Source: Candidatus Hadarchaeales archaeon
GTDB taxonomy: Archaea > Hadarchaeota > Hadarchaeia > Hadarchaeales > Hadarchaeaceae
Direction of reading: 5' to 3'
Assembly (NCBI GenBank): GCA_038823825.1
Contig: JAWBCC010000003.1
Location: 69,351 to 133,350, forward strand
Length of the DNA stretch: 64,000 nt
The first letter of the stretch is position 1; every line of letters starts with the position of its first letter. The notes under the pieces were generated by a model. The model worked only from the letters and a program-made list of their open reading frames with translations, did no database searches and was not told the origin of the DNA. Positions 4,101-28,269 of the stretch are shown here, piece after piece. The translations under genes were made by a program, and so were the position numbers.

Positions 4101-7028
4101 AACAAACTCGAGAATAACGTTTGGTATGGGTTGTTCGTCAGCGGCTACCAGATGGACTACTACGACCACGATATCGACAACTCGAACGAACTCAACGGAA
4201 AACCGATTCTCTATCTGGTGGGAGAAAACAACATAGTGATTAACCAAGACAACGATCCGGGCTTTCTAGGTCTCGTAGGTCTGGAGAATGTGAGGGCGGA
4301 AAATCTACAACCGGAATCTATTCTTCTCGTATTTACCGAAAACGTTTTGCTTAGAAATCATGCCGCACGCAGTCTCATTATGTGTTTTTCTGAAAACTGT
4401 AGACTAGAAAATAGCATCTCCGAGAACGGCATGTTTGGCATTTTAATTTGGTGGTCTAGAAATCTAACACTCCGAGCGAACCAAGCAAGAAACTGTCTCT
4501 ATAATTTTGGCGTCGAAGGATGGGAGCTTCCTCATTACCTACATGATATTGATAACTCGAACTCGGTAAACGGGAAACCGGTCATCTATCTGATAAACGA
4601 AAACAACATCACGATTGAGCAGGGCGATCAGCCGGGTTACTTGGGCCTCATTAATCTGAGCAGCGCGAAGGTTAAAGATGTCAAATTTGAGAAAAACTGT
4701 CAGGGAATTCTGCTTTTCAGCGTAGAGAACATAGAAATCGAGAATGTCGATCTCAAAGCCAACTGGTTAGGTCTGGAGGCCAGCTTTTTGAAAGGTGGCG
4801 AGGTTAGCAACAACAGGATCGAAAATAACCTTGAAGGTTGCGTAATCCGGGATTCGAATAGCAATCTTTTCCATTCGAACATAGTGAGGAATAACCAAGA
4901 AGATGGTTTTTTGGTGAAAACTTCGGAAAACATTGTTTTCAGCGGAAACTTCGTTGAGAACAGCAATTATGGTATTAATGCATCCGAAACGGACAACATT
5001 ATCATCACCGGGAACACAATAGAGCACACCTCAGAGTTTGGAATATACCTCGATATGATTTTAGGTGGCAGCGTGACTTTCAACAATTTGCGGAACAATC
5101 AAACCGGAATTAGAGTTGACAGCGGCAGTCGATTGGTTATTTCCTACAACGTTATTGAGAACAGCTCGGATCGAGATATCATATTTAATGGAGAAAATTC
5201 TGTTTTCGAGGCAAACGTCTACACAACAGCAGACGGCATTCCTCACATACATTCAGTTTCTGTTACGAACATCACGCAGACATCTGCAACGATAACTTGG
5301 GTTACTGATGAGGACTCAACAACCGTTGTAGAATACGGACCAACAACGGCATACGGATACACCGCCACCGATGGTGTGACGAAAAACCATCAGGTGAACC
5401 TCTCCAACCTTTCACCTGGAACAATCTACCACTTCCGCGTCCTTTCAACCGACAGTGAAAACAACCTTGAGATATCAAGGGACTTCACCTTCATGACGGC
5501 TTCACCTCCACCTCCACCGCCCCCACCGCCTCCTCCACCTGCCCAGATCTCAACATCCATAACGATCGAGCCATTTGCCTTCTCCATTGTCTCAGGAGGT
5601 TCTAGAGAGATAACAGCCATTCTGAGGGATAACGGAGGGAACCCGCTTTCCGGAAAGACGATATCGTGGAGCACAACCGCTGGAACAATAACCCAGACGA
5701 GCGTGACAGACAACCTTGGGAGGGCAATCGCAACCTTCACGGCTCCTGTTGTCACGCGAGTGGAAAATGTGACTATCACGGCAACATTTGCTGGTGATGC
5801 AAGCTATTTGGGGAGTCAGGCAAACGCCCTATGTACGGTTTCTCCAACTCCTCTCATCCCAACAACCTTGAGAATTTCACCGCCAAGTTTCACAGTCAGA
5901 GTTGGTGGAAGGACAACACTGACCGCAATCCTCTTGGATAACGCTGGAAATCCGCTCCAAGGGAAGCAGATAGTTTGGAGCACAAATTCCGGTTCGATTG
6001 AACCGATGAGCGGTCTCACGGACAACTACGGGAGAATGGAGGTGACGTTTTTCGCACCGTCGGTCAGCGGATCTGTTGAAATCGGAGCTATGTTCGCAGG
6101 AGATTCCACACATACTGGAAGCCAAGCTGCATGTGAGGGAACCGTTTCCCCTCTTCAGGCCAGGATAGACATAACTCCTGATGTCATCTACAGAGGTTCC
6201 CTGCCACGCTGGATCTTCTGCTACATAGAGATCCCGGAGGAGAATGTGGAAGAGATAGATGTTGGCAGCGTTAGGCTTCAGCAAATTCCTGTTGATCCTA
6301 GCGCTCCGACGTCAGTCGGAGATCATGACGGGAACGGAATCCCAGACATTCTTCTAGGATTCAGCTCCCAGGCTCTTGCGCTTCCAGATTCCCCGGGCAT
6401 TCTGCAACTTTCCGTCATCGGATTCGTTAAAGGACTGGAGTTCAAAGGCACAACCGCTGTCCTTTACACAACCATTTCAGAAAACTTGAAGCCGATGATT
6501 TTTATTTTAGAAAACCTCCAGCCCGGCTCCTGGCCGGTTTTCTTGGAAAACATCTCTCTAAACCGGATTGACATCATCCTCGAGAACTATAGGGAAAGAG
6601 CCCAGCTCTTTGTTCTAGAACTTTTCAGTCCTCCGGAGGGAATTCCTTCGGCCCCAGGAATAGTCTACAGATATCTCTTGATAACCGTGGAGAACCTGGA
6701 GGAGGTAGAAAACGTTTCCCTGACTTTTGCCGTAAGCCGCTCTTGGATTTCCTCCTCAAACATCTCTGAAAATCTGATTTTCCTAAAGAGATTCGACGCA
6801 TCTGAAAACATATGGGAAAACATACCGATCACGTTGGTCGGAGAAGATGAAAGCTACGTCTACTTCCGTGCAAACTTGCGAGGTTTCTCTCTTTTTGCTA
6901 TCTCCGGTCTCCCCGCAGCTGCGCCTAAACCAGAGGCCAAGCCAAGGACTGAGATCCTGATAGCTGTGATCGTCGTCATTATCATAATCCTTCTTTTTAT
7001 CCTAATCTCTCTTAGGAGAAGGCAGTGA
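1110..7028 (+). CDS. Giant secreted cell-surface protein (1972 aa). It has a signal peptide and many right-handed parallel beta-helix (PbH1/NosD-like) repeats. A ~130-aa module is present three times. These are followed by an FN3 domain, a poly-proline linker, two bacterial-Ig-like (Big) domains and a C-terminal TM anchor with a basic tail.
   Basis: Repeated N-rich motifs NNxxxGIYLxxSxNN throughout. The module HDIDNSNxxNGKPILYLxxENNxxINQDNxxGxLGL occurs at aa ~305, ~1015 and ~1150. VTNITQTSATITWVTDED...YHFRV is FN3-like. SPPPPPPPPPPPPPA follows. Two ITAILxDNxGNPLxGKxIxWST Ig-like repeats follow. The C-terminus is ...ILIAVIVVIIIILLFILISLRRRQ. The real start is probably the in-frame GTG at 1185 (signal peptide VLSTFFGTLLLISLLAFSVSFVFLFSARTVSA), because a TATA-like tttaaata lies at 1127-1134 inside the annotated 5' end. 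Confidence 0.8.
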   Translation: MLNKRCLNTPKGIGFGANVDESGSNVLSTFFGTLLLISLLAFSVSFVFLFSARTVSASPDSHAPIYIVGNENFTPANGVRSGSGTETDPYIIENWEIDASTGHGIHIKNTTAYFVIRNVLVENGSGAYYGIYLENVVNGRLSNNIVGNNECGIYLYSSDNNTLSGNVVENNETGIYLDNSNSNFLFGNILANNGTGILLIYSENNTLSGNNLENNEYYGVDLYYSDNNTISGNNIERSWDTGICIDESSENNYLSNNQIRQSDYGFYFYYSGNNFLENNLVENSSYSAIWIDHSENIKMRKNVMKLGPSLVIQGGYLFHFLHDIDNSNLANGKPILYLTGKENNLVINQDNKVGWLGLVNSENMRVENIVVESILLAFTSKSKIENVMVENGYYAIELFKSSNNRILRSYIARGLYGIYLQNSPNNLISSCELERSYYSVCVTYSDNIEISNNIVRIASLGIYLYQCDNMVIAGNTIRDIENFAGVESFKLTNSRISNNSFINVSAQYVIVSYGYSENISITGNIIGGGGNYYGIYTEHWNEAFICGNTIENNVVAGIYLHSPENCTIENNILRNNPTGISLSYNAKSNKISGNWLENNNNSSLSITSYSDNNRIVNNTIKKSSEMRINWSNFITVENNTVEDSSGFAYLYSSDNNLISNNKITNVISGITMSTSCEYNRIENNFITKVATSGVLLMSTNCQWNKISGNKIENSNWGIEVSYKNNEIFSNVVKFSSKGIYVYGQSDNTTIFGNILENNEEGIRVSNSKAEITGNDLKGNTYGIYLATKTTTVLHNTIVDGNYGIYSYYSENILIENNVIERNLLAGIYFDSSKSNLIENTKIEGNVQYGIYLFYSDNNRILNNDILSSYQGMYLYQSKDAVISGNRVENNEQGIYLMYSSKDNILNNTIRSNKFGVLIVWASLNNIVENNEVDSNRTGVYLFGSKSNILRSNKILWSTDTGIGVYNNAELNRLENNTCENNAFGIRLDTAKKTILRGNKLENNVWYGLFVSGYQMDYYDHDIDNSNELNGKPILYLVGENNIVINQDNDPGFLGLVGLENVRAENLQPESILLVFTENVLLRNHAARSLIMCFSENCRLENSISENGMFGILIWWSRNLTLRANQARNCLYNFGVEGWELPHYLHDIDNSNSVNGKPVIYLINENNITIEQGDQPGYLGLINLSSAKVKDVKFEKNCQGILLFSVENIEIENVDLKANWLGLEASFLKGGEVSNNRIENNLEGCVIRDSNSNLFHSNIVRNNQEDGFLVKTSENIVFSGNFVENSNYGINASETDNIIITGNTIEHTSEFGIYLDMILGGSVTFNNLRNNQTGIRVDSGSRLVISYNVIENSSDRDIIFNGENSVFEANVYTTADGIPHIHSVSVTNITQTSATITWVTDEDSTTVVEYGPTTAYGYTATDGVTKNHQVNLSNLSPGTIYHFRVLSTDSENNLEISRDFTFMTASPPPPPPPPPPPPAQISTSITIEPFAFSIVSGGSREITAILRDNGGNPLSGKTISWSTTAGTITQTSVTDNLGRAIATFTAPVVTRVENVTITATFAGDASYLGSQANALCTVSPTPLIPTTLRISPPSFTVRVGGRTTLTAILLDNAGNPLQGKQIVWSTNSGSIEPMSGLTDNYGRMEVTFFAPSVSGSVEIGAMFAGDSTHTGSQAACEGTVSPLQARIDITPDVIYRGSLPRWIFCYIEIPEENVEEIDVGSVRLQQIPVDPSAPTSVGDHDGNGIPDILLGFSSQALALPDSPGILQLSVIGFVKGLEFKGTTAVLYTTISENLKPMIFILENLQPGSWPVFLENISLNRIDIILENYRERAQLFVLELFSPPEGIPSAPGIVYRYLLITVENLEEVENVSLTFAVSRSWISSSNISENLIFLKRFDASENIWENIPITLVGEDESYVYFRANLRGFSLFAISGLPAAAPKPEAKPRTEILIAVIVVIIIILLFILISLRRRQ

Positions 7029-7112
7029 TGAGAATTCCATATTAACAGAGTTGATGGACGACTCGCAAAACAGTTTTTAACGTTGACTAAATGATGAACT
7101 TTGGAGAACTGT

Positions 7113-7508
7113 ATGAAACGAAGGGAAATTATAAAAATCACATCTGAGTCCGGTGTGGAGATTTTGTGCGAAATCCGTTTTGACAAAAATCCGAAGACGG
7201 CTGAGGCTCTTATGAGGGCGATACCTTTCGAGACTCGAGCGGAGCTGTGGGGAAAAGAGGTCTATTTTGAGGTACCGTTTCGGATAGCTCTTGAAAATGC
7301 AGATGAAACGGTGAATCTGGGTGATGTGGCTTATTGGCCAGATGGTCCCTCTCTCTGTCTGTTCTTCGGACCAACTCCTTTAAGTCCTTCCTCAAAGGTC
7401 ATCAAGCCCTATAGTCCTGTGAATGTGATAGGTAGAATTATTGGAGATCTGAGAATTCTTGAAAAAGTGAGAGAAGGCGAAAAGCTCGAAGTCGAAAGAG
7501 TTCCATAA
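7113..7508 (+). CDS. Cyclophilin-like fold protein (TM1367/PF04126-like)
   Basis: ~130 aa. The motif GDVAYWPDGPSLCLFFGPTP...VNVIGRI resembles the TM1367 cyclophilin-like family (GDVAYYAPWGNLAIFY...VPLGKV). The ATG at 7113 is preceded by a GGAGAA RBS. The TTG at 7101 in the ORF track is less likely. Confidence 0.5.
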   Translation: MKRREIIKITSESGVEILCEIRFDKNPKTAEALMRAIPFETRAELWGKEVYFEVPFRIALENADETVNLGDVAYWPDGPSLCLFFGPTPLSPSSKVIKPYSPVNVIGRIIGDLRILEKVREGEKLEVERVP

Positions 7509-16524: not shown

Positions 16525-16743
16525 ATGACAACAGATCTGGATCCAAGGACGCTGAAAGTTTATGAGACGATGAAGAAGCTCGGGGCTACCTCGCCAAACT
16601 CTCTGAAGACCGCGGACGACATAATGCGCGCCTGTGGTCTTCCGAAGAGCGTGGTGAACAACGCTCTAATGACTCTTGTGAACAAGGGTTATGCGAAGAG
16701 GGTGGCGAGGGAGAAGGCTGCCGGTTACTATCTTTTGAAGTGA
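16525..16743 (+). CDS. Small winged-helix DNA-binding protein (72 aa)
   Basis: The ATG at 16525 is preceded by a GAGGTGA RBS. The 5' part of the listed long ORF overlaps the opposite-strand membrane protein and is rejected. PNSLKTADDIMRACGLPKSVVNNALMTLVNKGYAKRV is a wHTH pattern. Confidence 0.45.
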   Translation: MTTDLDPRTLKVYETMKKLGATSPNSLKTADDIMRACGLPKSVVNNALMTLVNKGYAKRVAREKAAGYYLLK

Positions 16744-16806: not shown

Positions 16807-17916
16807 ATGAAAAGAGTGGGTGTTGCGGAGCTTCCTCTTCATGGCGGGAAATGTCCTCCTTGGCTTTTCGGCAGGATGAAGAGACTTGGGGGCGCTATTG
16901 CGGAGCTCATCGTCAGAGAGTACGGGAGGAAGGAGTTTCTCCGCAGGCTGGGAGATCCGTTTTTCCTCCAGTCTCTTGGTTGTGTTTTGGGTTATGATTG
17001 GCATAGCTCTGGTTTGACGACTGTGACGATGGGTGCTCTTAAAGAGGCACTTGCTGAGAGGGATCTTGGGATAGTCGTCTGCGGCGGAAAGGGTCTGGTT
17101 TCAAGGAGGACGCCGGACGAGATAGAGAAGGTTGCGGAGAAGTTCTCTTTCTCGACCGCGGAGAAGGAGAGGCTGAAGTATGCGAGTAGGATGGTTGCGA
17201 AGGTGGACAATGCTTGTGTTCAGGATGGATATCAGCTTTACCATCATACTTTCGTTTTGAGTGAGGATGGGGACTGGGCGGTTGTTCAGCAGGGGATGAG
17301 GGAGAAGTTTGCTAGGCGGTATCATTGGATATCGGAGGGTTTGAAGAGCTTCGTGGAGGAGCCGCATTCGGGGATAGCTGGAGAGAGAAAGGAGGATGTT
17401 GTTTTGGATATGACGGCTGAGGAGAGCGAAGAGGCGAGGAAGACGAGCGTGGATTTGGTGAGGGAGAACCCGAGGAGACTTCTCTCTTATGTTAGGGGTG
17501 CGGAGCAGAAGCTTTTGGATGAGTATCTGGAGAAGAAGCCGGAGGTTAAGGTTCTTCTCATGCCTGCGGGGCACAGGATATCGGAGTTGACGGAAAAGAC
17601 GATTGCGGCGCTTAAGAGGGCTTACGAGATTCAGCCTGAGAATTATGAAGAGCTAGTGGCAATAAAGGGAATTGGTCCGAAGGCGATAAGGGCTCTTGCT
17701 CTTGTCTCAGCGGTTATCTATGGGAAGCCGCCATCTTGGAAGGATCCTGTGAGGTATAGCTTCGCGCATGGAGGGAAGGACGGGATTCCGTATCCTGTTG
17801 ATAGGAAAACATATCAGACGACGATCGAGATTCTCGAAGAGGCGATAGAGGGAATGGAAGCTGGGAAGGAGGAGAAAATCCGAGCTCTTCGGAGACTTCA
17901 CGAGTTTGTTGGGTAG
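16807..17916 (+). CDS. DUF763 family protein
   Basis: N-terminal MKRVGVAELPLHGGKCPPWLFGRMKRLGG is the signature start of DUF763 (PF05559) proteins. 369 aa. Confidence 0.55.
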   Translation: MKRVGVAELPLHGGKCPPWLFGRMKRLGGAIAELIVREYGRKEFLRRLGDPFFLQSLGCVLGYDWHSSGLTTVTMGALKEALAERDLGIVVCGGKGLVSRRTPDEIEKVAEKFSFSTAEKERLKYASRMVAKVDNACVQDGYQLYHHTFVLSEDGDWAVVQQGMREKFARRYHWISEGLKSFVEEPHSGIAGERKEDVVLDMTAEESEEARKTSVDLVRENPRRLLSYVRGAEQKLLDEYLEKKPEVKVLLMPAGHRISELTEKTIAALKRAYEIQPENYEELVAIKGIGPKAIRALALVSAVIYGKPPSWKDPVRYSFAHGGKDGIPYPVDRKTYQTTIEILEEAIEGMEAGKEEKIRALRRLHEFVG

Positions 17917-18337
17917 TGCACAGCTGTGCATAATTTCGCTTCATTCACAAATTTGACTAGGGTTGAGTTCACAGCTGTGCATTCCCTTATAAACCGCTTT
18001 CAACTGATGGATCGGTGGGAGTGCACAGCTGTGCACGGTCGAGTAATTCTTTTCACGTGGGAGCTTAAGGAGAGCTCAAAATCTCGGCGTTGGTTTTACG
18101 CAAATCTCAGGCGACTGCTGGATGAGCTTCCGCGAAACAGCTGGTGTAAACTTGGGGGTTCGGTCTATCTCGTGGAAAAACGATATTCTGTGAGATTTCT
18201 AATGCTTCTCAAAAAGTTTGAAGGACCGGAACTAACGTGGTATTCGTTCGAGATAGTGCGTCAGGTTTGAGTTCACAGCTGTGCACAACGCCCCCGCTGA
18301 TCACGGGAAATCCCACCACAGCAGTGCACAGCTGTGC
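17917..18337. repeat. Array of five ~21-bp direct repeats, each ending in a perfect 14-bp palindrome T(G/T)CACAGCTGTGCA. They fall in two phased groups.
   Basis: Copies at 17917-17930, 17968-17981, 18022-18035, 18272-18285 and 18324-18337. Each is preceded by GGTTGAG/GGTGGGAG/GGTTTGAG-like flanks. Spacings are 51, 54 and 52 bp within groups. A 250-bp gap between the groups holds the body of a small ORF. Confidence 0.75.
18007..18270 (+). CDS. Hypothetical small protein (87 aa from the internal ATG) embedded in the palindrome array
   Basis: ORF track 17926..18270. The first 27 codons of the GTG-start version run through repeats 1-2 and are likely non-coding. The core RVILFTWELKESSKSRRWFYANLRRLLDEL...GGSVYLVEKRYSVRF has a beta-alpha pattern that loosely recalls Cas2/VapD-like ferredoxin folds. 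This is a weak pattern match only. Confidence 0.3.
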   Translation: MDRWECTAVHGRVILFTWELKESSKSRRWFYANLRRLLDELPRNSWCKLGGSVYLVEKRYSVRFLMLLKKFEGPELTWYSFEIVRQV

Positions 18338-18388
18338 ATAGTTTCGTGTGCGTAAATTCTAAAAATCGGTGAATAGATGTAGAAATGG

Positions 18389-18479
18389 GCCCGCGGTAGC
18401 TCAGCTTGGTAGAGCGGCCGGCTGTAGACCCGTCGGCCGAAACCGGCATGTCGGGAGTTCAAATCTCCCCCGCGGGACC
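18389..18479 (+). tRNA. tRNA-Tyr (anticodon GTA) with a ~14-nt intron at the canonical 37/38 position
   Basis: Acceptor CCCGCGG/CCGCGGG. D arm GCTC...GAGC. Anticodon stem GCCGG with loop CTGTAGA gives GTA. The 3' half of the anticodon stem (CCGGC) appears only after an inserted CCCGTCGGCCGAAA. T arm GGGAG-TTCAAAT-CTCCC. CCA encoded. Confidence 0.8.
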
Positions 18480-18502
18480 ATGAGTCCATTTCAATCGCCT
18501 GC

Positions 18503-19306
18503 TTAAGGATGACTGGAGAACACTGGAATCGGGGCCGCTTTCGTACACTTTTCCCGATATCCGCACGCACCACATTTTTCAGCTTTTCTGGTCGGTTTGG
18601 CGTTTCTTCTTTCCTCCCAAAACGGTATCGCCCATTCAAGCTTTTCGATTGCGCTTTCCAGCGAGAAGGGGTACATCCAGACCACTAGTCCAGGAATGTC
18701 GAGATCAACCGGTTCTTTTTTATACAGTTCAGGTATGCTCAGCATGCATATTGTCTGGTTGAGACTCTCGATCTTTTCTCTGTTCAGATCGTGTGGTGCT
18801 ACAGAGATGGCGTATCTCAGCTCAGAAGTTTCGAAGCCAAGGTCATGGAGAAGATATCCGTAAACCAGAGCCTGAACGTGATAACTCGGAAAAATCTTCG
18901 GCTTTCTGGAAAACTTGTATTCGATGAGCAGCGTGGGTTTTCTGCGCCTGAAGAGTATATAGTCCGGTCTACCTGCGATTACGCATTCCCGGTACTTTCC
19001 GAGTAGAAGCATAGAAGCCCCAACCGTTGGCTTTTGAAATATGTCTCTCCAGAGATCCTCTCTTTTTACAGGAATCATGCCGGAAAGAGTCAGTTCATGC
19101 TTTTCATCACCCTTTTCCATTTCTTGGGTCTGAATCTTCCCGTAGGTGTATTTGAGTTCCACTTTTTTCTCGCAATAAAACTGTTCTGCTATCTCCGAGG
19201 CATTCACAAAATGTAGTCCAAAGCGGAGCCTTTTTTTACTCTCTTTTGCTTCCTCCAGCAATGACATAAATCTTCTAAACGGTTTCCACCTTTTCATGGA
19301 ACCCAC
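18503..19306 (-). CDS. Cas4-family (DUF83) PD-(D/E)xK nuclease with a 4-Cys Fe-S cluster. It stands alone; no CRISPR array or other cas genes are in the window.
   Basis: N-terminal Cys in SEIAEQFYCEKK. Nuclease motifs GRPDYILF (D), LLIEYKFS (ExK) and YHVQALVYGYLL (QxxxY). C-terminal CGACGYREKC supplies three more Cys. Confidence 0.7.
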   Translation of the reverse strand: MGSMKRWKPFRRFMSLLEEAKESKKRLRFGLHFVNASEIAEQFYCEKKVELKYTYGKIQTQEMEKGDEKHELTLSGMIPVKREDLWRDIFQKPTVGASMLLLGKYRECVIAGRPDYILFRRRKPTLLIEYKFSRKPKIFPSYHVQALVYGYLLHDLGFETSELRYAISVAPHDLNREKIESLNQTICMLSIPELYKKEPVDLDIPGLVVWMYPFSLESAIEKLEWAIPFWEERRNAKPTRKAEKCGACGYREKCTKAAPIPVFSSHP

Positions 19307-19388
19307 AAAACTAAATTAGGGTTTTGTCATAAAATACGCTTGGGCAGTTAACAAGATCCCACAAACGAGAGTAGTTTTTTAAATTTCG

Positions 19389-19826
19389 TTGTTTATAAAG
19401 GAGCTTCATTCAATCAGCTTGTGGGTTGTTTTGTCAGGTGTTCGGATATCATCGCCGCATGACATATTTGCTCTCGTAAAAGGAGATTTCTCGAATGATA
19501 GCGAAAAGGTGGAGCTTGTAATGCTAGATTCGATGTGCAACGTTCTCGCAAAGGAAATTGTTTCCGAGGGAAGCGAGAACTCGGCTCCCCTCCATCCCCG
19601 TCAAGTGCTTGCCGTGGCTCTTCGATATCCGACGGTTTTCATTGTTCTTGTTCATAACCATCCGAAAGGTTGTGTGGAACCCAGCGAGGAGGATATAGAG
19701 GTAACGAGGAAAATTGCAAAGGCTGGAAAAATGGTTGGCGTTTACCTACTCGATCACCTGATAATTGGGAATGGGAAATTCTTTAGTTTCCTTCAGCAAG
19801 GTCTAATTTCTCCTTCAATTAGATAA
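19389..19826 (+). CDS. RadC-like JAB/MPN domain protein
   Basis: JAMM-type motif VLVHNHPKGCVEPSEEDIEVTRKIAKAGKMVGVYLLDHLII (HxHPxG...S..D) typical of RadC/DUF2466. Divergently transcribed from the Cas4-like gene. TATA-like boxes lie in the 80-bp spacer. Confidence 0.75.
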   Translation: MFIKELHSISLWVVLSGVRISSPHDIFALVKGDFSNDSEKVELVMLDSMCNVLAKEIVSEGSENSAPLHPRQVLAVALRYPTVFIVLVHNHPKGCVEPSEEDIEVTRKIAKAGKMVGVYLLDHLIIGNGKFFSFLQQGLISPSIR

Positions 19827-19864
19827 GCAGAAATTAAAGCTGCTTATCAGATAAGTTTATATGC

Positions 19865-21646
19865 ATGAAAGAAGAAAATTATAAGATTAATTTGGCAAAA
19901 AGAATCGACAGATGGCTAGAAAATAGGCGAATTTTGCTCATGAAAACTTTTGGGACTAGAGAATTTACCCGTAGAGAAGCTACAGATGTCCTAAAAGAAA
20001 AATTTGGTGATGATGAGAAAGCAGTTGCTGCAGTTCTCTCGGAGTTAAAGCATGCTGGTTATCTCGAGATGAGACCGGATCCTACTGACGCCAGGAAAAC
20101 GATATACTGCCTAAAAGAAGTCAAGATTCTCAAGCCTGAAACAGAGGAGCTGACAAGGGATGAGCTAGAATCGCTCCTAAAAAGAGCCGCGGATCTCATA
20201 CGAACTCGTGTTGATTACAAGTTCATTCTCATTCTGCTCTTTCTCAAGAGAATAAGTGATAAGTGGGAGATGGAGTTTAAACAGGTTTACGAGCAGCTTC
20301 TCCGGAATGGACTTTCGGAGGAAGAAGCCGAGGAGGAAGCTAAGAGCAGCATCTACCACGAGTTTGATTTGCCTGAGAAGTTCCTTTGGGAAAACCTTCG
20401 CAAAGATGTGGCTAGACTCCCGGAGAGACTCGCTGAATGTCTCAAAACCCTCGCCGAACGCAACCCGGAGTTGAAGGATGTGGTGGATAGGGGAGATTTT
20501 CTCCAGTTTGCGAGAAGTTCGGAAAATGCGGAGATTTTGAGGCAGCTTGTTGAACTCTTCAGTTCTCGCAAGCTCCACCACGTTTCTCCCGATGTGCTCG
20601 GAGACGCGTATGAATGGGTTTTGAGGTACTTTGCTCCGGAAAAGGCGAAAGAGGGAGAAATCTACACACCAAGGGAGGTCATAAAACTGCTCGTTGAGAT
20701 TTTGAATCCGAAATCTGGAGAATCTGTTTATGATCCAGCGTGCGGATCGGGTGGAATGCTCATTTTGTCGTTCAAGAATGTGGAGGAAAAGGAGGGGAGG
20801 GAGGCAACCCGAAAGCTCTCCTTGTACGGACAGGAGGCAAACCGGGAGATTTTCGCTCTCTGCAAAATGAATATGTACATCCACGATATTAGGGATGTCA
20901 ACATTGAGTGGGGTGATACGCTTCTCTATCCAAAGTTCATTGAGGGGAACAGGCCAAAGACTTTCGACGTTGTGATGGCGAATCCACCTTGGAATCAGGA
21001 TGGTTATCACGAGGAGGTTCTGAAGAAGGGAGAGTTCTGGGGAGAGAGGTTTGTCTACGGTTTCCCGCCCAAACAGTCTGCGGACTGGGCATGGATTCAG
21101 CATATGCTGGCTTCCGCCGACGGGAAAAACGGAAGGGTTGGGGTTGTTATAGACAACGGTTGTCTGTTCAGGGGAGGGAAGGAGCGGGCAATAAGGGAGA
21201 GGGTGCTGAGAGATGACCTGCTGGAGTGCGTGATCCTTCTGCCGGAGAAGCTCTTTTATAACACCGGAGCCCCGGGAGCCATTCTGATTTTCCGTAAACA
21301 TAAGCCAGCCGAGAGGAAGGGGAAGATCCTGTTCATTAACGCGAGCCAGGAGTATGAGAAGCATCCAGAGGTGAGGAAGCTGAACAGGCTTGGGGAGGCA
21401 AACATAAGGAAGATCGCTGAGGCCTACAGGAACTTCAAGGATGTTGAGGGTTTCGCCAGAGTGGTTTCGCTGGGGGAGGTGAGGGAGAACGATTACAATC
21501 TAAACGTCACGCTGTACGTCTTTCCGGAGGAGAAGGTCGAGGAGATAGACGTGGCGAAGGAGTGGGAGGAACTCCGCAAGATTGAGAAGGAAATTACAGA
21601 GGTTGAGGAGAAGATTCAGGGATATTTGAGGGAGGTTGGAGGTTAA
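19865..21646 (+). CDS. hsdM: Type I restriction-modification system methyltransferase subunit HsdM
   Basis: N6-adenine MTase motifs DPACGSGGML (motif I) and ANPPWNQDGY (motif IV, NPPW). Typical N-terminal HsdM domain. 593 aa. Confidence 0.9.
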   Translation: MKEENYKINLAKRIDRWLENRRILLMKTFGTREFTRREATDVLKEKFGDDEKAVAAVLSELKHAGYLEMRPDPTDARKTIYCLKEVKILKPETEELTRDELESLLKRAADLIRTRVDYKFILILLFLKRISDKWEMEFKQVYEQLLRNGLSEEEAEEEAKSSIYHEFDLPEKFLWENLRKDVARLPERLAECLKTLAERNPELKDVVDRGDFLQFARSSENAEILRQLVELFSSRKLHHVSPDVLGDAYEWVLRYFAPEKAKEGEIYTPREVIKLLVEILNPKSGESVYDPACGSGGMLILSFKNVEEKEGREATRKLSLYGQEANREIFALCKMNMYIHDIRDVNIEWGDTLLYPKFIEGNRPKTFDVVMANPPWNQDGYHEEVLKKGEFWGERFVYGFPPKQSADWAWIQHMLASADGKNGRVGVVIDNGCLFRGGKERAIRERVLRDDLLECVILLPEKLFYNTGAPGAILIFRKHKPAERKGKILFINASQEYEKHPEVRKLNRLGEANIRKIAEAYRNFKDVEGFARVVSLGEVRENDYNLNVTLYVFPEEKVEEIDVAKEWEELRKIEKEITEVEEKIQGYLREVGG

Positions 21647-22301
21647 ACAAATGAAAAGATCAAATGATGAGATTCGCGAGTTAATTCTAAGAGAATTATA
21701 TGAAGTTCACAAAAAAGCTAGGAGTCTAAAAGCCACGGGAAAAAGCATAAGCGAGTTGAAACGCCAACTTAAGAAGCAATATGGACTAAGTGAAAAAGAA
21801 ATTGTGCCCAATCTTGATTTTTTAATCCAATGCGGTTGGGTAAAGGTAGAGAAAGAAACATCCGAGTTTAAAACTCCAAGAGGGTTTATAAAGAAACAGG
21901 AGAAAGGTATCTTCAAAATTTCAGATATGGGTATCAACTATTTTGAAGGACAATCCAAATTCCAAAGGATAGAGAGATCGCTTGCTGGTATAAACATAAC
22001 TAATATAGGTGGGGTCACAGTCTTAGGGGACGGAAATGTAGTTGTAAATGTAAACTATGTTGATTTATACAAAGAACTGTCTATGCTTTCAGAGATCATA
22101 AGAAAAAGTGATCAACTCAAAGATGTTGACAAATTAAACTACATCGCGGAAATTGAAACAATAAAATCCCAGTTGATGAAACCGGAACCTGACAAGAACA
22201 TAATAAAGCAAGCTTGGGAAAAACTAAAGCCACTTGCAACTATTGCTGGCATAGCTTCGTTTTTCGAGCGAGTTGTTAAATTAATGGGGGCATTGTTTTG
22301 A
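21636..22301 (+). CDS. Uncharacterized 221-aa protein embedded between hsdM and hsdS (N-terminal wHTH-like region, C-terminal coiled-coil/Gly-rich region)
   Basis: Overlaps hsdM by 11 nt and hsdS by 4 nt, so it is translationally coupled inside the R-M operon. Very AT-rich coding sequence. No recognizable catalytic motif. Confidence 0.5.
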   Translation: MEVKQMKRSNDEIRELILRELYEVHKKARSLKATGKSISELKRQLKKQYGLSEKEIVPNLDFLIQCGWVKVEKETSEFKTPRGFIKKQEKGIFKISDMGINYFEGQSKFQRIERSLAGINITNIGGVTVLGDGNVVVNVNYVDLYKELSMLSEIIRKSDQLKDVDKLNYIAEIETIKSQLMKPEPDKNIIKQAWEKLKPLATIAGIASFFERVVKLMGALF

Positions 22302-23563
22302 AAACCGGTTACAAACAAACGCCAATCGGTAGTATCCCGAAGGAGTGGGAGGTTGTCAGGCTTGGGGATATTTCTAAGGTATCTTCGGGGAATACAGCAC
22401 CGCAAGATAAAAAATATTTTGAAAATGGGAAATATCCTTTCATAAGAGTTCAGCACCTTAGTACATTGCTAGAAAATAAATATCCTATTATTTGCGATTT
22501 TGTAAATGACTTGGCTGTTGAGGAACTCAAATTGAAAAAATTCAAGAAAGGTTCTATAATATTTCCGAAAAGCGGGGAGTCTATAAGGCTTGAAAAAAGG
22601 GCGATACTAAGAGAGGATTCCTATGTGGTAAACCACTTAGTTGTTGTCGAAGTTTTTTCAAATAACGTAGATACAAACTTTTTATATTATTATTTGTCAA
22701 GCCTCAGAACAAGTAGTTACCTTTCTAAAACTACAATGCCATCACTCAATCTTTCAGTCATTAAATCATTTTTAATCCCCCTCCCACCCCTCCCCGAGCA
22801 ACGTAAGATCGCCGAGATCCTCTCAACAGTCGACCAAGCCATCCAGAAGGTGGACGAAGCCATAGCCCGGACTGAGAGGTTGAAGCGTGGGCTGATGCAG
22901 AGGCTGCTCACCCGGGGTATAGGGCACAGGGAGTTCAAGGACACGGAGATAGGGAGGATTCCGAGGAAGTGGGAGGTTGTCAGGCTTGGAGACAAAAAAA
23001 TTACAGAAGAACTTTTCTACGGTATAACCGCTAAAGCTGTCGATAAGGATACTGGAGTAAAAATGTTGAGAACTACGGATATCAAAGAGTATTCTGTGGA
23101 CTGGGAAAAACTTCCTTTTTGTGAAATCACTGAAAGGAGGGGTAACTTAACTAGATATCTTCTGAAGAAAGGAGACCTGATTGTAGCAAGGGCTGGAACT
23201 GTGGGCGTTTCTATTCTTGTGGATAGAGATTTTGACAACGTGATTTTCGGATCATATCTGATAAAAGTGAAGCTAAAACCAAGCATACATCCAAAATTTG
23301 TTCACTATTTCTTCCAATCCTCACTTTATTGGAAACACCTGCAAAAGGCTCAAGGAAGTACTTTAAAAAACGTAAACCTGCCTTTGTTAAAATCTCTCAA
23401 GATCCCCCTCCCACCCCTCCCCGAGCAGCGCAAGATCGCCGAGATCTTCTCAATCGTCGACAAAAAGCTCGAACTCGAAAGAAAAAGGAAGGAAAAACTC
23501 GAGCGGATCAAGAGGGGTCTGATGAACGATTTGCTCACCGGGAAAAAGAGGGTGAAGATATGA
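22298..23563 (+). CDS. hsdS: Type I R-M specificity subunit HsdS (two target-recognition domains)
   Basis: Duplicated conserved segments: IGSIPKEWEVVRLGD and IGRIPRKWEVVRLGD open the two TRDs. LIPLPPLPEQRKIAEILSTVD and KIPLPPLPEQRKIAEIFSIVD form the central and C-terminal conserved coiled-coil regions. Confidence 0.85.
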   Translation: MKTGYKQTPIGSIPKEWEVVRLGDISKVSSGNTAPQDKKYFENGKYPFIRVQHLSTLLENKYPIICDFVNDLAVEELKLKKFKKGSIIFPKSGESIRLEKRAILREDSYVVNHLVVVEVFSNNVDTNFLYYYLSSLRTSSYLSKTTMPSLNLSVIKSFLIPLPPLPEQRKIAEILSTVDQAIQKVDEAIARTERLKRGLMQRLLTRGIGHREFKDTEIGRIPRKWEVVRLGDKKITEELFYGITAKAVDKDTGVKMLRTTDIKEYSVDWEKLPFCEITERRGNLTRYLLKKGDLIVARAGTVGVSILVDRDFDNVIFGSYLIKVKLKPSIHPKFVHYFFQSSLYWKHLQKAQGSTLKNVNLPLLKSLKIPLPPLPEQRKIAEIFSIVDKKLELERKRKEKLERIKRGLMNDLLTGKKRVKI

Positions 23564-24534
23564 TTGACCAACATTTGGAAAAAGAAAGAGTGATCGTGGA
23601 CGAAAAATTAAAACAAAATGAAGAGACCAAAGTATACGAAATTTTTCGTGAAGTTATGAAGAGTTATCTCGGAGTAGAAATAGAAAAAGAAAAGGCAGGA
23701 CGAATTTTAGAATTTTTCATGACAGTAATGTATAACTTGACTTTGAATCCAAGCGCCATCGTTAGAGGGTACTACCTTTGCGCAGAGCAAGATTATGAAG
23801 CCGCTAAGTTATTGAGTAAAAAATTTCCCTCCCTCGCCGTTTTTCATTTACAACAGACCGTAGAAAAAATAACTAAAGCTTACGCGCTCCACATGGGATT
23901 GATAAAAGAAGAAGAATCGTATAAAAAACGAGGAAATAAAGTCGGGACCGAAGTTGTTGGTCATATCTCACCTAAGGCTTTTATTTTGTTGTTGAAGAAA
24001 AGAGGCGCTGCAGAATTCGTCGATACGGTTTTTCTTGCATGTCCAGAAATTCCCAAAATAACTGTTAAAGAAGTTCTTCAAAAATTCGAAAAATTACTAC
24101 AAAAAACGGATGAATTGGCAAAACTCTCAAAAAATGAAATAAACCATTTTATAAAAAGATGCGAAGACATCCAAGACGCCATTAGAAAAATTGACATCAG
24201 GAAAACAAGGGAAAATTTCAAACGCCTCAAAGTAGGGTTTATTGCAAGACTAAGATCTGCGGTTTCACCAGAGATAGTTGAAGATATCAAGAAAAAATTT
24301 AACGCGATAGAAAGGAAGATCGGTTCAATAATCAATGAACTTCTAACGTTTTCGCAACTATATGCTCTGGCGATAATCACCTTTCCGCACTTCTCCTACA
24401 GTCGATACCCTGGAGGCAAAATAACATTTGCTGACTATCACGAAGGGCTGGGTATAGTAGATTCTCTCGATGATATTTTGATCTCTATCGGTTCTATTAT
24501 GAAAAGTCTAGAAAAAATTTGTGCGAGAGGGTGA
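23560..24534 (+). CDS. HEPN-like domain protein (324 aa) inserted between hsdS and hsdR, in the PrrC position
   Basis: Start ATG at 23560 overlaps the hsdS stop (ATGA). AEQDYEAAKLLSKKFPSLAVFHLQQTVEKITKAYALHMG matches the PF05168-type HEPN N-terminal helix pattern (A..D...A..LL..g.y..a.f.a.Qa.EKalKA). A C-terminal SRYPGG recalls the HEPN RYPd motif but sits after an unusually long ~200-aa insert. Confidence 0.4.
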   Translation: MIDQHLEKERVIVDEKLKQNEETKVYEIFREVMKSYLGVEIEKEKAGRILEFFMTVMYNLTLNPSAIVRGYYLCAEQDYEAAKLLSKKFPSLAVFHLQQTVEKITKAYALHMGLIKEEESYKKRGNKVGTEVVGHISPKAFILLLKKRGAAEFVDTVFLACPEIPKITVKEVLQKFEKLLQKTDELAKLSKNEINHFIKRCEDIQDAIRKIDIRKTRENFKRLKVGFIARLRSAVSPEIVEDIKKKFNAIERKIGSIINELLTFSQLYALAIITFPHFSYSRYPGGKITFADYHEGLGIVDSLDDILISIGSIMKSLEKICARG

Positions 24535-24536
24535 AA

Positions 24537-27500
24537 ATGCCAATCTTTACCGAAAAATCCACTGTTGAAAGCTACATCATAGAAAAGCTGAAGGAAAAAG
24601 GCTGGAAGCATGTTCCCGGAGAAGAATTAGAGCGAGAAGACTACTCCGAACCGCTTTTGGTGAGGCATCTTCTTGAAGCAATCCACAGAATAAACCCCCA
24701 CCTAACCCTGACAAAAAAGGATCTGGACAGAATTCTGCTAGAACTCAGGAGCCTTCCATCCACATTTGATGGTTCCAAGCGACTGCTCAAGTTCCTAAAA
24801 GAAGGAATCCCAATAGAACTGGAAAAAACAGGAGAACTCAGATATGTCTCTCTGCTCGATTACGAAAACCCAAAGGAGAAAAACGAGTTCATCGTAAGCG
24901 ACCAAGTACCTTTCCACGGGCCTAAAGAAAGATGTAGACTTGACATAGTCCTCTACGTAAACGGAATCCCGCTTGTAGCAATAGAGTGCAAAAACCCGAC
25001 CGACCCGACCAGAGACTGGGAAACTGCCTATAAACAGATAAAATCTTACGAAAAGGCTGTCCCAGAACTCTTCAAGTATGTCCAGTTCAGCATAGCCGCC
25101 GCCGCGACCACCAGATATTTCCCGAACGTCTTAGGAGCCGAGGATGTCAAAATCTACTTCCCTAAAGGGAAAGATACTCCCGAGTCCCTGGATCGAACAC
25201 TTGACCTCCTCCTAAATCCAGACGCTCTCCTCGATCTTGTTGCAAACTTCATTTTCGCGAGGGAAGAGCATGGAAAGTTCACAAAAGTTTTGCCCTACTA
25301 CTACCAGTACGAAGGCGCCAACCAAATCTACCAAAGAGTCCTTAACAACCTGTCTGAGAAGGAAAAAAAAGAGAAGGGGTTGATCTGGCATTGGCAGGGT
25401 TCCGGAAAAACCCTCACGATGATTTACGCCGCCCGTAAACTTTACCTTTGCCCCCTGCTTGAAAACCCCACCATCTTCTTCGTCGTCGACAGAGAGGAGC
25501 TTGAGGAGCAACTGTTTAAAGAATTTTCTTTCTTAGACCTCGGCATACCCTCACCTGAGGTCATTTCTTCGATCGAGCACCTCCGTCAGATTCTGACCTA
25601 TGACGAGGGAAGAGGAAAGAGGGGGATGTTCATCACTCTCATTCACAAGTTCGGCGAAAAGCTTGCCGATCTCGTTTTTGAGGACAAGGACATGAAAAAC
25701 ATTTCAAACAGGAGAAACGTCATCGTTTTAATAGACGAGGGACATCGGACGCAGTACGGAGAGTATGCCGGCCGTATGCGAGGCATACTCAAGAAAGCTT
25801 TCTTCTTCGCTTTCACGGGAACTCCTTTCTCCACGAAAAAGAGAGATACCTTCGCCGCTTTTGCTTATCCCGAGGAGGGCGAACTCTATCTTCACAAATA
25901 TTTTGTCCGAGAATCAATTGAAGACGGTTTTACCCTCCCCATTGTTTTCCAGACTAGGATGGAAAAAGAGGTCGGCCTAGAAAAAGAACTACTGGAAGAG
26001 TTTTTGGAGCAAGAGCTGGAGGAAATCACCGAAGAATCCCTCCGCCTCGCCCTAGAAGGAAAAATCAGCAGACGATTGACCCAGATCGTTGTATTCTTTG
26101 AGAATCCAGAAAGAATAGAAAAGATTGCCAGCGATATCGCCACTCATTTCAAGGAAAACGTGGACGGAAAGTTCAAAGGCATGGTTGTGGCGGCTTCAAG
26201 AAAAGCGTGCATCTATTATAAGGAGGCTCTCGATCGGCTGCTGGGACCGGAATACTCCGAGATTGTTATGACGTTCAATCCTCGCACGGACCCCGAACCG
26301 ATCAAATCCTATTACGAAAAGTTGAGGCAGAAATATCATGGCAAGGAGATTGAGGAAATCTGGGATGAGATAATCGAGAAGTTCAAAGAAAGGGAATATC
26401 CGAAAATTTTAATCGTCACGGACAAACTTCTGACAGGTTTTGATGCTCCAATTCTCCAAGTGATGTATCTAGACAAGCCGCTGAAGGAACATAGGCTTCT
26501 TCAAGCAATAGCAAGAACCAATCGTCCATTCAAAGAACTAAAACCAGCGGGTCTCATCATAGACTATGTCGGAATTCTCAAAGAATTCGAAAAAGCCGTG
26601 GCCATTTACGAAAAGCAGGATATTCAGTACGTAGGCTTCAAGCCGGAAGAAAAGATAGATGAGCTTCGAAAGCTTATCAGCGATGCGGAGGAGACCCTTG
26701 AGGGTGTGGATAAAACAAAAACCGATTTTGAAACTCTTAAAGCCGCAGCAAAACTGCTCTTTCATTATCCAGAAAAGCAGAGAAAATTCTCCCAAACGTA
26801 CAAACAGGCTAGAAATCTTTACGAGTTTCTTCTCCCCTTCGGGCTGGACAAGAAGACTGTGGAGAGATTCAAATGGCTGGCCGCAGTCTACAACTTTCAT
26901 CGCCAATGGGTGGAGCAGGAGAAGTCAGAGGAAATGGAAGAAAACTTTAGAAAATTCTATCCAAGAGTTGTTGAGCGCGTTCACAAGGCCATCCAAATAG
27001 AAATGAAAGAAGAGTTTCCAAGTTTAACGCTTGATAAAGAATATCTTGAACGGTTGGGCAGATTGGGTTTAGAAGACCAAGTTTATAACATGGTTTTCGG
27101 TCTAAACAAATATATCCGCGTAGACCGTCCGTTCAGTCCTATTTATGAACCAATCGCCAAACGCGTGGAAAAACTAGTTGAAAGGTGGCGAAACAAAAAG
27201 ATTTCGGTCGAGGAGGCTTATAACGAAGCAGTTTCCATTTTGCAGGAAACGAGAAAAACCGAGGAGAGAATAAAAACGCTCGGATTCTCAGAGCCAGAAT
27301 ACTTCATTCTCAAAGTTCTTGAAAAGGAACTGGGAGAATCTGAGGATCTAGTCCAAGAAGTCCGGAGTCTCTGGAGAAAATGGGAGAAGACTGGAAAAAT
27401 ATTCCCAGGATGGACTCGAAAAATGAGTATCCTAAAGGAACTCGTGCGAGATATAAGAATGTTCATGGTAAAGAAAGGTATCCCACTTAAAAGGAGGGAA

Positions 27501-27545
27501 GAGCTCTGTGAGGAGATCATCAACGGACTCAAGGCCACTTCATAA
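24537..27545 (+). CDS. hsdR: Type I R-M restriction subunit HsdR (SF2 helicase/endonuclease)
   Basis: Walker A WQGSGKT, DEAH-box VLIDEGHRTQ, helicase C-terminal motifs (QAIARTNR), ~1000 aa. Start taken at the ATG at 24537 (MPIFTEK...). Confidence 0.9.
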   Translation: MPIFTEKSTVESYIIEKLKEKGWKHVPGEELEREDYSEPLLVRHLLEAIHRINPHLTLTKKDLDRILLELRSLPSTFDGSKRLLKFLKEGIPIELEKTGELRYVSLLDYENPKEKNEFIVSDQVPFHGPKERCRLDIVLYVNGIPLVAIECKNPTDPTRDWETAYKQIKSYEKAVPELFKYVQFSIAAAATTRYFPNVLGAEDVKIYFPKGKDTPESLDRTLDLLLNPDALLDLVANFIFAREEHGKFTKVLPYYYQYEGANQIYQRVLNNLSEKEKKEKGLIWHWQGSGKTLTMIYAARKLYLCPLLENPTIFFVVDREELEEQLFKEFSFLDLGIPSPEVISSIEHLRQILTYDEGRGKRGMFITLIHKFGEKLADLVFEDKDMKNISNRRNVIVLIDEGHRTQYGEYAGRMRGILKKAFFFAFTGTPFSTKKRDTFAAFAYPEEGELYLHKYFVRESIEDGFTLPIVFQTRMEKEVGLEKELLEEFLEQELEEITEESLRLALEGKISRRLTQIVVFFENPERIEKIASDIATHFKENVDGKFKGMVVAASRKACIYYKEALDRLLGPEYSEIVMTFNPRTDPEPIKSYYEKLRQKYHGKEIEEIWDEIIEKFKEREYPKILIVTDKLLTGFDAPILQVMYLDKPLKEHRLLQAIARTNRPFKELKPAGLIIDYVGILKEFEKAVAIYEKQDIQYVGFKPEEKIDELRKLISDAEETLEGVDKTKTDFETLKAAAKLLFHYPEKQRKFSQTYKQARNLYEFLLPFGLDKKTVERFKWLAAVYNFHRQWVEQEKSEEMEENFRKFYPRVVERVHKAIQIEMKEEFPSLTLDKEYLERLGRLGLEDQVYNMVFGLNKYIRVDRPFSPIYEPIAKRVEKLVERWRNKKISVEEAYNEAVSILQETRKTEERIKTLGFSEPEYFILKVLEKELGESEDLVQEVRSLWRKWEKTGKIFPGWTRKMSILKELVRDIRMFMVKKGIPLKRREELCEEIINGLKATS

Positions 27546-28269
27546 AGTGCTGAGGATAGAAGGAGAAAGCATACCTTATACTGTCGAATGGAGGAAAGTG
27601 AAATATCCGCGTTTGGAACTGAAAACCGGGAAGCTAAAGATAATTCTTCCAAAAGGAGTAAAGGACGAAACACCCATTCTGGAAAGAAATCTCCAGTGGA
27701 TACTTAAAAGGCATGAAGAAATCAAGAGGGCAAAGGAGAACATAGCAAACTCCTTGAGCGGAAATGGGATTCTCATCTTCGGCTCTTTCTATAAAGTCGA
27801 GCCGGGCATACCCCTCGTCATTTTCCTGAACGGGATACAGAAAAAGTTCGACCTGATGAAAGAAAGAGACCAGGTTAAACTAAGAAACTTTCTAAAAAAG
27901 ATTCTGAGAGAGGAGCTGAGGAAGTTAGTGAACCACTATTCATCAAAATTTGGTCTGAGATTCGGAAGAATATACATAAGAAACCAGAAAACAAAATGGG
28001 CAAGTTGTTCCTCCTCGGGTAACCTGAGCTTTAACTTCCGGCTTGTTCACGTACCATATGATATTTTAAAGTATGTTGTCTGTCATGAGGTTCTTCACCT
28101 AGCTGAAAAAGGTCATTCGAAAAAATTCTGGGAAAAAATCAGAGAGGAGTTTCCAAACTACAAAGAGATGGAGAAAAAACTTTTCGAATACTGGTTTTTC
28201 ACGATGGATTCCCAATTTCCAGATATTCGTTTTATTGGAAAGCGAAAAACCTCAAGAAATTTGGAATGA
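27508..28269 (+). CDS. DUF45/YgjP-like (WLM/SprT-like) zinc metallopeptidase, commonly linked to type I R-M hsdR
   Basis: HExxH motif in VVCHEVLHLAEKGHSKKFWEKI. Size and placement immediately after hsdR (overlapping its 3' end) are typical of this family. Confidence 0.7.
   Translation: MRRSSTDSRPLHKVLRIEGESIPYTVEWRKVKYPRLELKTGKLKIILPKGVKDETPILERNLQWILKRHEEIKRAKENIANSLSGNGILIFGSFYKVEPGIPLVIFLNGIQKKFDLMKERDQVKLRNFLKKILREELRKLVNHYSSKFGLRFGRIYIRNQKTKWASCSSSGNLSFNFRLVHVPYDILKYVVCHEVLHLAEKGHSKKFWEKIREEFPNYKEMEKKLFEYWFFTMDSQFPDIRFIGKRKTSRNLE

Follow-up and report, generated by a model that had tools for sequence, protein, structure and literature searches.

We analysed a 64-kb stretch of a Candidatus Hadarchaeales archaeon contig (JAWBCC010000003.1), hereafter the window, in which five copies of a short palindrome surround a small open reading frame (ORF) upstream of a tRNA-Tyr gene. 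With slightly better than even confidence, we read this module as a self-contained accessory cassette encoding a dimeric, sequence-specific double-stranded DNA (dsDNA)-binding autoregulator, with probable bridging between the sites at either end of its own gene. An autonomous regulatory module of a small DNA-binding protein had been named as the alternative in a preliminary description of this DNA, and the comparative data now favour it.

Palindromic sites around a small ORF

A search of the window for TGCACAGCTGTGCA with up to 2 mismatches returned exactly 5 matches, at 17917, 17968, 18022, 18272 and 18325, compared to a mean of 0.06 expected from shuffled sequences (0 of 100 shuffles reached 5), so the five-copy array noticed at the outset is real. 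The whole module spans ~420 bp (17917-18338), with two sites 5' of a putative TATA box, one over the GTG start codon and two past the stop codon. This placement agrees with the preliminary description, which had three sites upstream of or within the 5' end of the ORF and two between its stop codon and tRNA-Tyr. The left edge of the module is site 1 (17917..17930, TGCACAGCTGTGCA), a perfect 14-bp palindrome that directly follows the TAG with which a DUF763 gene ends; the right edge is site 5 (18325..18338, TGCACAGCTGTGCA), 51 bp 5' of tRNA-Tyr and ~21 bp 5' of the likely TATA box of that tRNA gene. Sites 1 and 5 are 96% identical over 24 nt in direct orientation. Site 2 (17968..17981, TTCACAGCTGTGCA) ends 5 nt 5' of the putative TATA box of the ORF and thus overlaps the expected position of the B recognition element (BRE). 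Site 3 (18022..18035, TGCACAGCTGTGCA), the candidate proximal operator, includes the GTG start codon (18031-18033), and site 4 (18272..18285, TTCACAGCTGTGCA) begins 2 nt past the stop codon.

Not all features first ascribed to the array were retained. Perfect 14-bp palindromes, claimed for every copy, are found in 3 of the 5 sites, whereas in sites 2 and 4 (TTCAC...GTGCA) one position breaks the symmetry. In the window the proposed 'GGT-N-GAG' 5' extension is weak, and related loci do not conserve it. Start-to-start distances of 51, 54, 250 and 53 bp bear out the reported 51-54 bp spacing, but the helical phasing deduced from it did not survive comparison: 59 spacings from 29 loci gave a Rayleigh p = 0.32 at a 10.5-bp period, and spacing across loci ranges from 16 to 134 bp.

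A small protein family of Hadarchaeota

The ORF (18031..18270, forward strand) encodes 79 aa from the GTG. The ~87-aa product described before is obtained if ATG 18007 is used, whereas homologues back the GTG at 18031, inside site 3. The GTG in the proximal site shares the reading frame of the ORF in nearly all loci, and gene callers put the start of most homologues at a GTG or ATG within a palindrome; the 'FTAVH' and 'CTAVH' peptides of over-extended gene models are translated palindromes. The window protein is basic (pI 10.0; 15 K/R versus 8 D/E).

Neither the ORF nor its relatives had a sequence match in Pfam, NCBIfam or PDB, and no good homology to an unrelated enzyme, which the preliminary description held to speak against an autoregulator, came from these collections. 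Terpene-synthase matches to the ORF and its relatives were rejected as spurious; the matched protein is all-helical. Among 5.8 billion proteins searched, 13 clusters were recovered, all from metagenome-assembled genomes (MAGs) of Hadarchaeota/Hadesarchaea or from metagenomes, one of them a 100% match annotated as Hadarchaeales. An exhaustive profile search of 1.84 billion representatives retrieved only 23 proteins. The alignment core reads ...LFTWEL-x5-6-RRWFY-xNL-x9-SW-xK[VL]GGSVYLV...FEGPEL-xW, with an invariant Tyr (Y23) in helix α1 and an R/K-rich stretch at the N-terminus of this helix, and indels from the start codon to strand β1 are whole codons. A distant subfamily, 27-35% identical to the window protein, aligned with the main family at an hhalign probability of 99.2% (E = 1e-19). 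These results indicate that the small ORF is a genuine gene and that its family is very small and restricted to Hadarchaeota.

Some copies of the module have decayed. One of the two closest relatives, L001, which shares the DUF763/tRNA-Tyr neighbourhood of the window, carries at 5001-5273 a 72-bp in-frame deletion between short TCGG microhomologies (corresponding to window 18013-18084). Since the deletion takes out site 3 and strand β1, the L001 gene is probably inactive, barring an assembly artefact. Further decayed copies, with an in-frame TGA or a frameshifted ORF and with ACGT/ACAT-core sites, were seen at L017 (934-1286) and L042 (4851-5135). L017 is a second copy in the MAG that holds L013, so that some genomes carry two modules differing in specificity.

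Co-occurrence of gene and sites in related loci

The comparison covered 51 related or control loci (designated L001 and so on; ~330 kb in total, flanks of up to 10 kb). A scan of GTDB genomes contributed 6 of them, in 5 Hadarchaeota MAGs, and one of JGI metagenomes 25; exact-protein look-ups supplied others. The genome scan was run with a narrower alignment, the family-wide one being too divergent. The layout is kept in ~45 related loci from at least 12 unrelated neighbourhoods, all on Hadarchaeota or archaeal metagenome contigs, and every gene-bearing locus has the palindrome family around its gene. Each locus has 0-5 copies upstream, 1 over the start codon and 1-3 past the stop codon, or up to 7 past the stop in the distant subfamily. 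Nearly all loci whose contig reaches beyond the stop codon have a stop-proximal site, and the minimal form (L013, L015, L038) consists of one start-codon site and one right past the stop. Throughout the ~330 kb, sites lie within ~350 bp of the gene, with the sole exception of L031/L033, where a site ~0.9 kb downstream closes a neighbouring cassette. The palindrome had been considered as a possible generic motif scattered widely; no copy away from the gene was found in the 64 kb of the window, and none more than 1 kb from it in the ~330 kb of flanks. The largest array, in L048 (461-810), comprises seven downstream TCTAGACACGTGTCTAGA copies over 350 bp and runs into the start called for the small ORF that follows (736-1008).

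The neighbouring genes are housekeeping genes that vary by locus: DUF763/tRNA-Tyr, HypD, aRF1/HAD, aminotransferases, atpB with a TrpRS/TyrRS-type tRNA synthetase, DnaG, Hef, XdhC-like, NnrD and THEP1. No neighbour gene is constant, and no other candidate binder travels with the sites. No Rep, Orc1/Cdc6 or integrase gene adjoins any module. A MinD/ParA-like ATPase gene stands next to the module in 2 of ~20 neighbourhoods (L020, 2881-3585; L028, 3640-4476), the two ATPases being 31% identical to each other.

Position of the sites relative to the promoter

A putative archaeal TATA box (TTATAAA, 17987..17993, forward strand) lies 28 nt 5' of site 3, a distance shared by most homologous loci, as judged by its sequence and by a promoter alignment. 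Anchored on the proximal site, the promoters of 27 loci share a common plan of an upstream site, a spacer of 17-20 nt (5 nt in the window), TTATAAA, 28 nt and the proximal site. The 28-nt stretch ends ...CAAAGCC-GGCGGGTA, and the GTG begins at the tenth base of the proximal site. An upstream site is absent within ~85 nt in L013, L015, L022 and L038. Since an archaeal TATA box is centred ~26 nt 5' of the transcription start, the proximal site would cover ~+5 to +19. In L043, of the distant subfamily, two sites flank the TATA box, the proximal one abutting the ATG and containing the predicted transcription start, and a third starts right past the stop codon. With TATA box and start site predicted in this way, the positions of the sites correspond to classical archaeal repressor placement.

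A block of the form TTATAA-N15-18-CAAAG-N5-6-GG(C/T)GGG is found in module promoters (window 17987-18021), in a toxin-antitoxin cassette of L031 (4181-4215) and before the next gene in L048 (955-1003). The block may represent a promoter/5' leader consensus of the whole lineage or else a promoter unit that is copied.

Co-variation of sites and protein

The central tetranucleotide of 115 sites from 29 non-redundant loci was GGCC in 78, AGCT in 29 and ACGT in 4, so that the 4-nt core is self-complementary in 111 of 115 sites, with 4 exceptions. Five site classes follow the protein clades, and dyad symmetry is kept throughout. Proteins of the KLGG, xRRWFY clade (window, L018, L022, L026, L028, L032, L037, L039) accompany an AGCT core, those of the KVGG, xKRWFY clade (most other loci) a GGCC core, and those of a third clade (L017, L040, L042) an ACGT core. 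The distant subfamily has 18-bp palindromes, TTATCACACGTGTGATAA in L043 and TCTAGACACGTGTCTAGA in L045 to L048, with ATCAC/GTGAT or TAGAC/GTCTA arms. A change of class at one position is seen in the positional orthologues L021 and L022, whose flanking proteins are 84-94% identical; their module proteins are 56% identical and belong to different clades, 3 of 4 aligned sites change from GGCC to AGCT (the outermost is GGCC in both), and DNA identity drops from ~87% to ~60% exactly across the module. The GGCC core goes with K at residue 19 and A-containing cores with R, which points to this residue as a concrete candidate specificity determinant. Because it comprises few clade-level events, the co-variation is suggestive and not statistically strong.

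The dyad symmetry extends across the central 4 nt, as expected for a two-fold dimer on duplex DNA but not for a hairpin loop. Folded as RNA, the commonest variant, TTCAC..., forms no hairpin: its energy is 0 kcal/mol at 70 °C, and at 37 °C it adopts a different structure (-2.0 kcal/mol). The perfect variants do fold at 37 °C (-9.3 kcal/mol for window site 3, -9.8 kcal/mol for the 18-mer). Lone GGCC-core sites stand among AGCT arrays at L022 4777, L032 1377 and L037 4781; they could reflect cross-talk with a GGCC-type paralogue or be relics of allele replacement.

Predicted fold of the small protein

AlphaFold2, run on the family alignment, returned a β1-α1-β2-β3-α2-β4 ferredoxin-like domain (pLDDT 89.8) with strands at residues 5-12, 38-42, 45-49 and 68-75 and helices at 19-32 and 50-63. 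The top ~30 Foldseek matches in PDB were all Cas2 (E 8e-4 to 4e-2; TM 0.55-0.68), and a VapD match came at 0.09. The Cas2/VapD-like fold guessed in the preliminary description thus holds at the level of the fold. Compared by hhalign with a hand-built Cas2 profile, the family gave a probability of 0.15%, a weak test since this profile is small (4 sequences). Matches to papillomavirus E2/EBNA1-type DNA-binding domains were weak (E ≥ 0.19, probability ≤ 0.21), leaving homology unsupported. An E or D follows the invariant W10 in 21 of 21 aligned members and lies in β1 of the model; judged by pattern, it may correspond to Cas2 D10. No cas1, other cas or vapX-like/antitoxin neighbour was found at any locus, and no CRISPR-like array in the window. 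A reading of the palindromes themselves as a CRISPR-like array was rejected, as related loci share their 'spacers' (85% identical in L005 and L009), the promoter is located within the array and no array was detected by TRF. Together, these results suggest that the small protein has a Cas2-like fold, with homology to Cas2 unproven.

Behaviour of the module as a unit

Modules that are 83-88% identical in DNA occur in wholly unrelated flanks, and the shared homology of ~350 bp runs from the outer edge of an upstream site to the outer edge of the stop-proximal site. The syntenic loci L025 and L031 (94% identity) differ by a 626-bp toxin-antitoxin cassette (DUF4258 toxin plus MqsA-like antitoxin) that lies between two sites in L031 with its own copy of the site-plus-TATA promoter; L025 has a single hybrid site in its place and an MNT nucleotidyltransferase pair inserted beside the outermost site. 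In this one lineage the same operator-plus-promoter unit precedes the neighbouring toxin-antitoxin pair and appears to drive it.

The distribution of the module is sporadic, with 13 clusters of the small protein compared to >120 clusters of the neighbouring DUF763 protein at ≥64% identity. L049 to L051 hold DUF763 and tRNA-Tyr without a module, the two genes being adjacent in L049 (35 bp from DUF763 to the tRNA) and separated by one gene in L050 and L051. Neither a scan of viral contigs for paired sites nor tblastn against plasmid and phage collections gave a match, and no target-site duplication or conserved insertion target was seen at the modules. Some positions are old: L012 and L043 share a location between atpB and a TrpRS/TyrRS-type (class Ib) tRNA-synthetase gene. 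The sporadic spread and shifting flanks suggest that the module behaves as a relocatable accessory unit, a discrete cassette of one phylum in which gene and putative binding sites are inherited, replaced and relocated together.

Neighbours of the module in the window

The DUF763 gene (16807-17916) ends directly before site 1, and tRNA-Tyr(GTA) (18390..18480, forward strand) follows outside the module; its length of 91 nt implies a short intron. Rfam found nothing besides this tRNA over 16-20 kb. A ~10-kb island with lower-GC stretches follows 3' of tRNA-Tyr (18503-28269), encoding a Cas4-like PD-(D/E)XK nuclease, RadC, type I restriction-modification (R-M) hsdM/hsdS/hsdR and YgjP, with no integrase. 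Two ORFs inside the R-M operon, between hsdM, hsdS and hsdR (21636-22301, 221 aa; 23329-24534, 401 aa), have no Pfam match. The array had been described as the border of this defence island. In no other neighbourhood does a tRNA or a defence gene adjoin the module, and since neighbour genes elsewhere are housekeeping genes that vary, we regard both the tRNA and the island as incidental to it. Integration of the module at the tRNA was also rejected: the 28-nt 3' end of tRNA-Tyr (up to 3 mismatches) occurs only once in the window, and no integrase is encoded there.

At the same position, right 3' of tRNA-Tyr, L050 has a tyrosine integrase (6140-7119) and L051 has DUF6036-type genes (6184-7102), with an identical DUF763 protein (P0049). 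The 3' side of tRNA-Tyr is thus a variable spot among relatives. In L049, a tRNA-like gene (4145-4310) with a tRNA-Tyr-like acceptor arm and a CCA end directly follows DUF763; it was not called by ARAGORN and, at ~165 nt, probably contains a long intron or several introns. A TrmB/IclR-like winged-helix gene (~71 aa) always precedes DUF763 (window 16528-16743, L049 2691-2906, L001 3600-3818). It stays with DUF763 in L049, which has no module, and so travels with DUF763 and not with the palindromes.

Proposed mechanism and alternative explanations

In the autoregulatory scheme that we favour, the small protein would bind the 14-bp dyad TKCAC-RGCY-GTGCA as a symmetric dimer on double-stranded DNA. 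One bound site would lie just 5' of the TATA box and another over the transcription start region and the GTG, and occupancy of the proximal site would block recruitment of TBP/TFB and RNA polymerase, resulting in negative autoregulation. Dimers bound to the post-stop site or sites and to the extra upstream copies would probably bridge, forming a loop or roadblock that encloses and insulates the gene. Several observations weigh against this scheme. No further target sites were seen in the window or the flanks, and a regulon is unproven. The acidic residue that ends β1 (W-E/D) is kept family-wide, as in Cas2 nucleases, and a pure DNA binder would not need it. The co-variation of sites and protein is confounded by phylogeny. 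Position 2 is T in 87 of 115 sites, in an orientation that is constant relative to the gene, an asymmetry that a symmetric dimer leaves unexplained. Finally, L045 has no upstream site and bears four perfect 18-mers downstream, between convergent genes, so that promoter control cannot be the whole story.

The acidic residue, together with the invariant Tyr in α1, would fit a mobile or recombining cassette. Its protein would be a nuclease or recombination factor, site-specific and with a Cas2/VapD-like active site, whose targets are the flanking palindromes; these would serve as cassette ends or recombination sites, and regulation would be secondary. We consider this possible, although clearly less probable than autoregulation. 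It would suit the similar modules (83-88% DNA identity) with edges at palindromes in unrelated flanks, the presence or absence of the toxin-antitoxin unit exactly between two palindromes in L025/L031 with the MNT pair beside the outermost site, the sporadic spread with an empty DUF763-tRNA junction in L049, and the different module alleles in L021/L022. However, there is no recombinase, transposase or HUH motif, modules show no target-site duplication or insertion target, the family was not found in viral or plasmid collections, and some positions have been stable over long divergence (L012, L043). Ordinary direct-repeat recombination can explain the loss of the toxin-antitoxin cassette, and recombination of DNA is not known for Cas2 alone. 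An autonomous cassette whose Cas2-fold protein cuts or synapses its own palindromes, moves between intergenic sites and captures or sheds toxin-antitoxin cassettes is, in our judgement, unlikely. The two near-universal sites, at the start codon and past the stop, fall inside the predicted transcript, as would the four downstream sites of L045, in its 3' untranslated region; with the foldable perfect variants and the constant site orientation, this could point to an RNA-level module, in which a VapD/Cas2-like RNase or RNA binder recognises palindrome hairpins in its own mRNA. The outcome would be translational autoregulation or a toxin curbed, in the manner of type III toxin-antitoxin systems, by an RNA encoded in cis. 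We think such a module improbable, because the would-be loop is 4 nt long and self-complementary in 111 of 115 sites, with three cores, the commonest variant forms no hairpin, many sites lie 5' of the TATA box, and in L043 transcription is predicted to start inside the proximal palindrome. Also, the units are variably spaced and, unlike those of ToxI, do not form full-length tandem repeats. A ToxIN-like type III system as such was rejected: the repeats are only 14-18-bp palindromes, TRF found no tandem array and most sites fold poorly as RNA.

The preliminary description had preferred a replication or partition origin of an integrated element, and we now consider it very improbable that the small protein is a replication initiator or centromere binder and the array its iterons, origin or centromere-like partition site, whether on an integrated element or on the chromosome. 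A cluster of repeated sites around a gene for a small basic protein does recall ParR/parC or ω, the 51-54 bp spacing in the window approximates five turns of the helix, two modules adjoin a MinD/ParA-like ATPase gene and the L045 array lies outside any promoter. Against this, the neighbourhoods, at least 12 of them unrelated and of housekeeping character, offer no adjoining Rep, Orc1 or integrase gene, a ParA-like gene occurs in only 2 of ~20, the phasing is not conserved, there is no GC-skew turning point at 18 kb, and the window has no second tRNA-Tyr 3' end (28 nt). A check of plasmids and viruses, of the kind proposed in that description, found no module in the viral and plasmid collections. 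Moreover, a module that is absent from most sampled relatives cannot be a chromosomal origin or centromere. The ORF has no known DNA-binding domain and part of its 5' end is encoded by a palindrome, which would fit a reading in which another host factor binds the sites and the ORF is a passenger or a gene-calling artefact. This seems to us the least probable explanation of all, as ORF and sites strictly co-occur in ~45 loci and five specificity classes, conservation is at the protein level with whole-codon indels and a confident fold, the main family and the distant subfamily match at an hhalign probability of 99.2%, and there is no constant neighbour gene.

Significance and comparison with known systems

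If the dyads are bound as we propose, the family would constitute a new class of sequence-specific DNA-binding proteins on a Cas2/ferredoxin-like scaffold, not helix-turn-helix (HTH) or ribbon-helix-helix (RHH), with a built-in specificity series of five operator classes and a candidate determinant in residue 19. If the sites are instead cut or recombined, the module would bear on how Cas2-like proteins first became associated with palindromic repeats. A recombining cassette would be a recombination system without a recognisable recombinase and might show a free-living role of Cas2/VapD-like proteins with palindromes before CRISPR adaptation modules arose. For annotation, the array should not be taken for an origin or for the border of an integrated element.

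Cas2 is a structural subunit of the CRISPR adaptation complex, and its dimer touches duplex DNA within Cas1-Cas2 complexes. The present family resembles Cas2 and VapD in length (~80-100 aa) and in the β1-α1-β2-β3-α2-β4 topology, and it resembles Cas2 in the aromatic-acidic-aliphatic triplet that ends β1 (W-E/D-L in this family, Y-D-I in SSO1404). Unlike Cas2 and VapD, it has no sequence or profile similarity to them and no cas1, CRISPR array or antitoxin gene, and the pairing with gene-specific palindromes belongs to this family, not to Cas2 or VapD. Cas2 is itself counted in the VapD interferase family, with an RNA recognition motif (RRM)/ferredoxin-like fold (PMC6452270). A ferredoxin-fold gene flanked by co-evolving, family-specific palindromes is also found in RAYT-REP and IS200/IS605 TnpA systems, which share with the module the varied neighbourhoods and a unit that ends at the palindromes. 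In contrast to these, the module protein lacks an HUH motif or conserved His pair and is about half the size, and, unlike those of RAYT-REP, its palindromes are not dispersed, none lying away from the gene in the window or the flanks. An integron-like comparison can be made for the one DUF4258/MqsA-like cassette, which lies between two sites and whose absence from a syntenic relative is precise; no module has an integrase. With ParR/parC, ParG and ω the module has in common the gene for a small basic protein embedded in an array of its own (here putative) sites, with autoregulation; most modules, however, have no partner NTPase, and they are chromosomal, sporadic and not in the plasmid and virus collections. 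In site placement the module is like the Lrp, TrmB, MarR and RHH autoregulators, whose dyad sites flank the TATA box and cover the start and whose operators co-evolve with the protein, as the site sequences suggest here. The predicted fold of the module protein is not HTH, winged HTH or RHH, and the modules differ in having up to 5 upstream and 1-7 downstream sites, a near-obligatory post-stop site and, at one locus, downstream sites only. As an autoregulated DNA-binding protein with its operators, the system would thus be of a known kind; what is unusual here is the Cas2-like scaffold and the bracketing of the gene by its sites.

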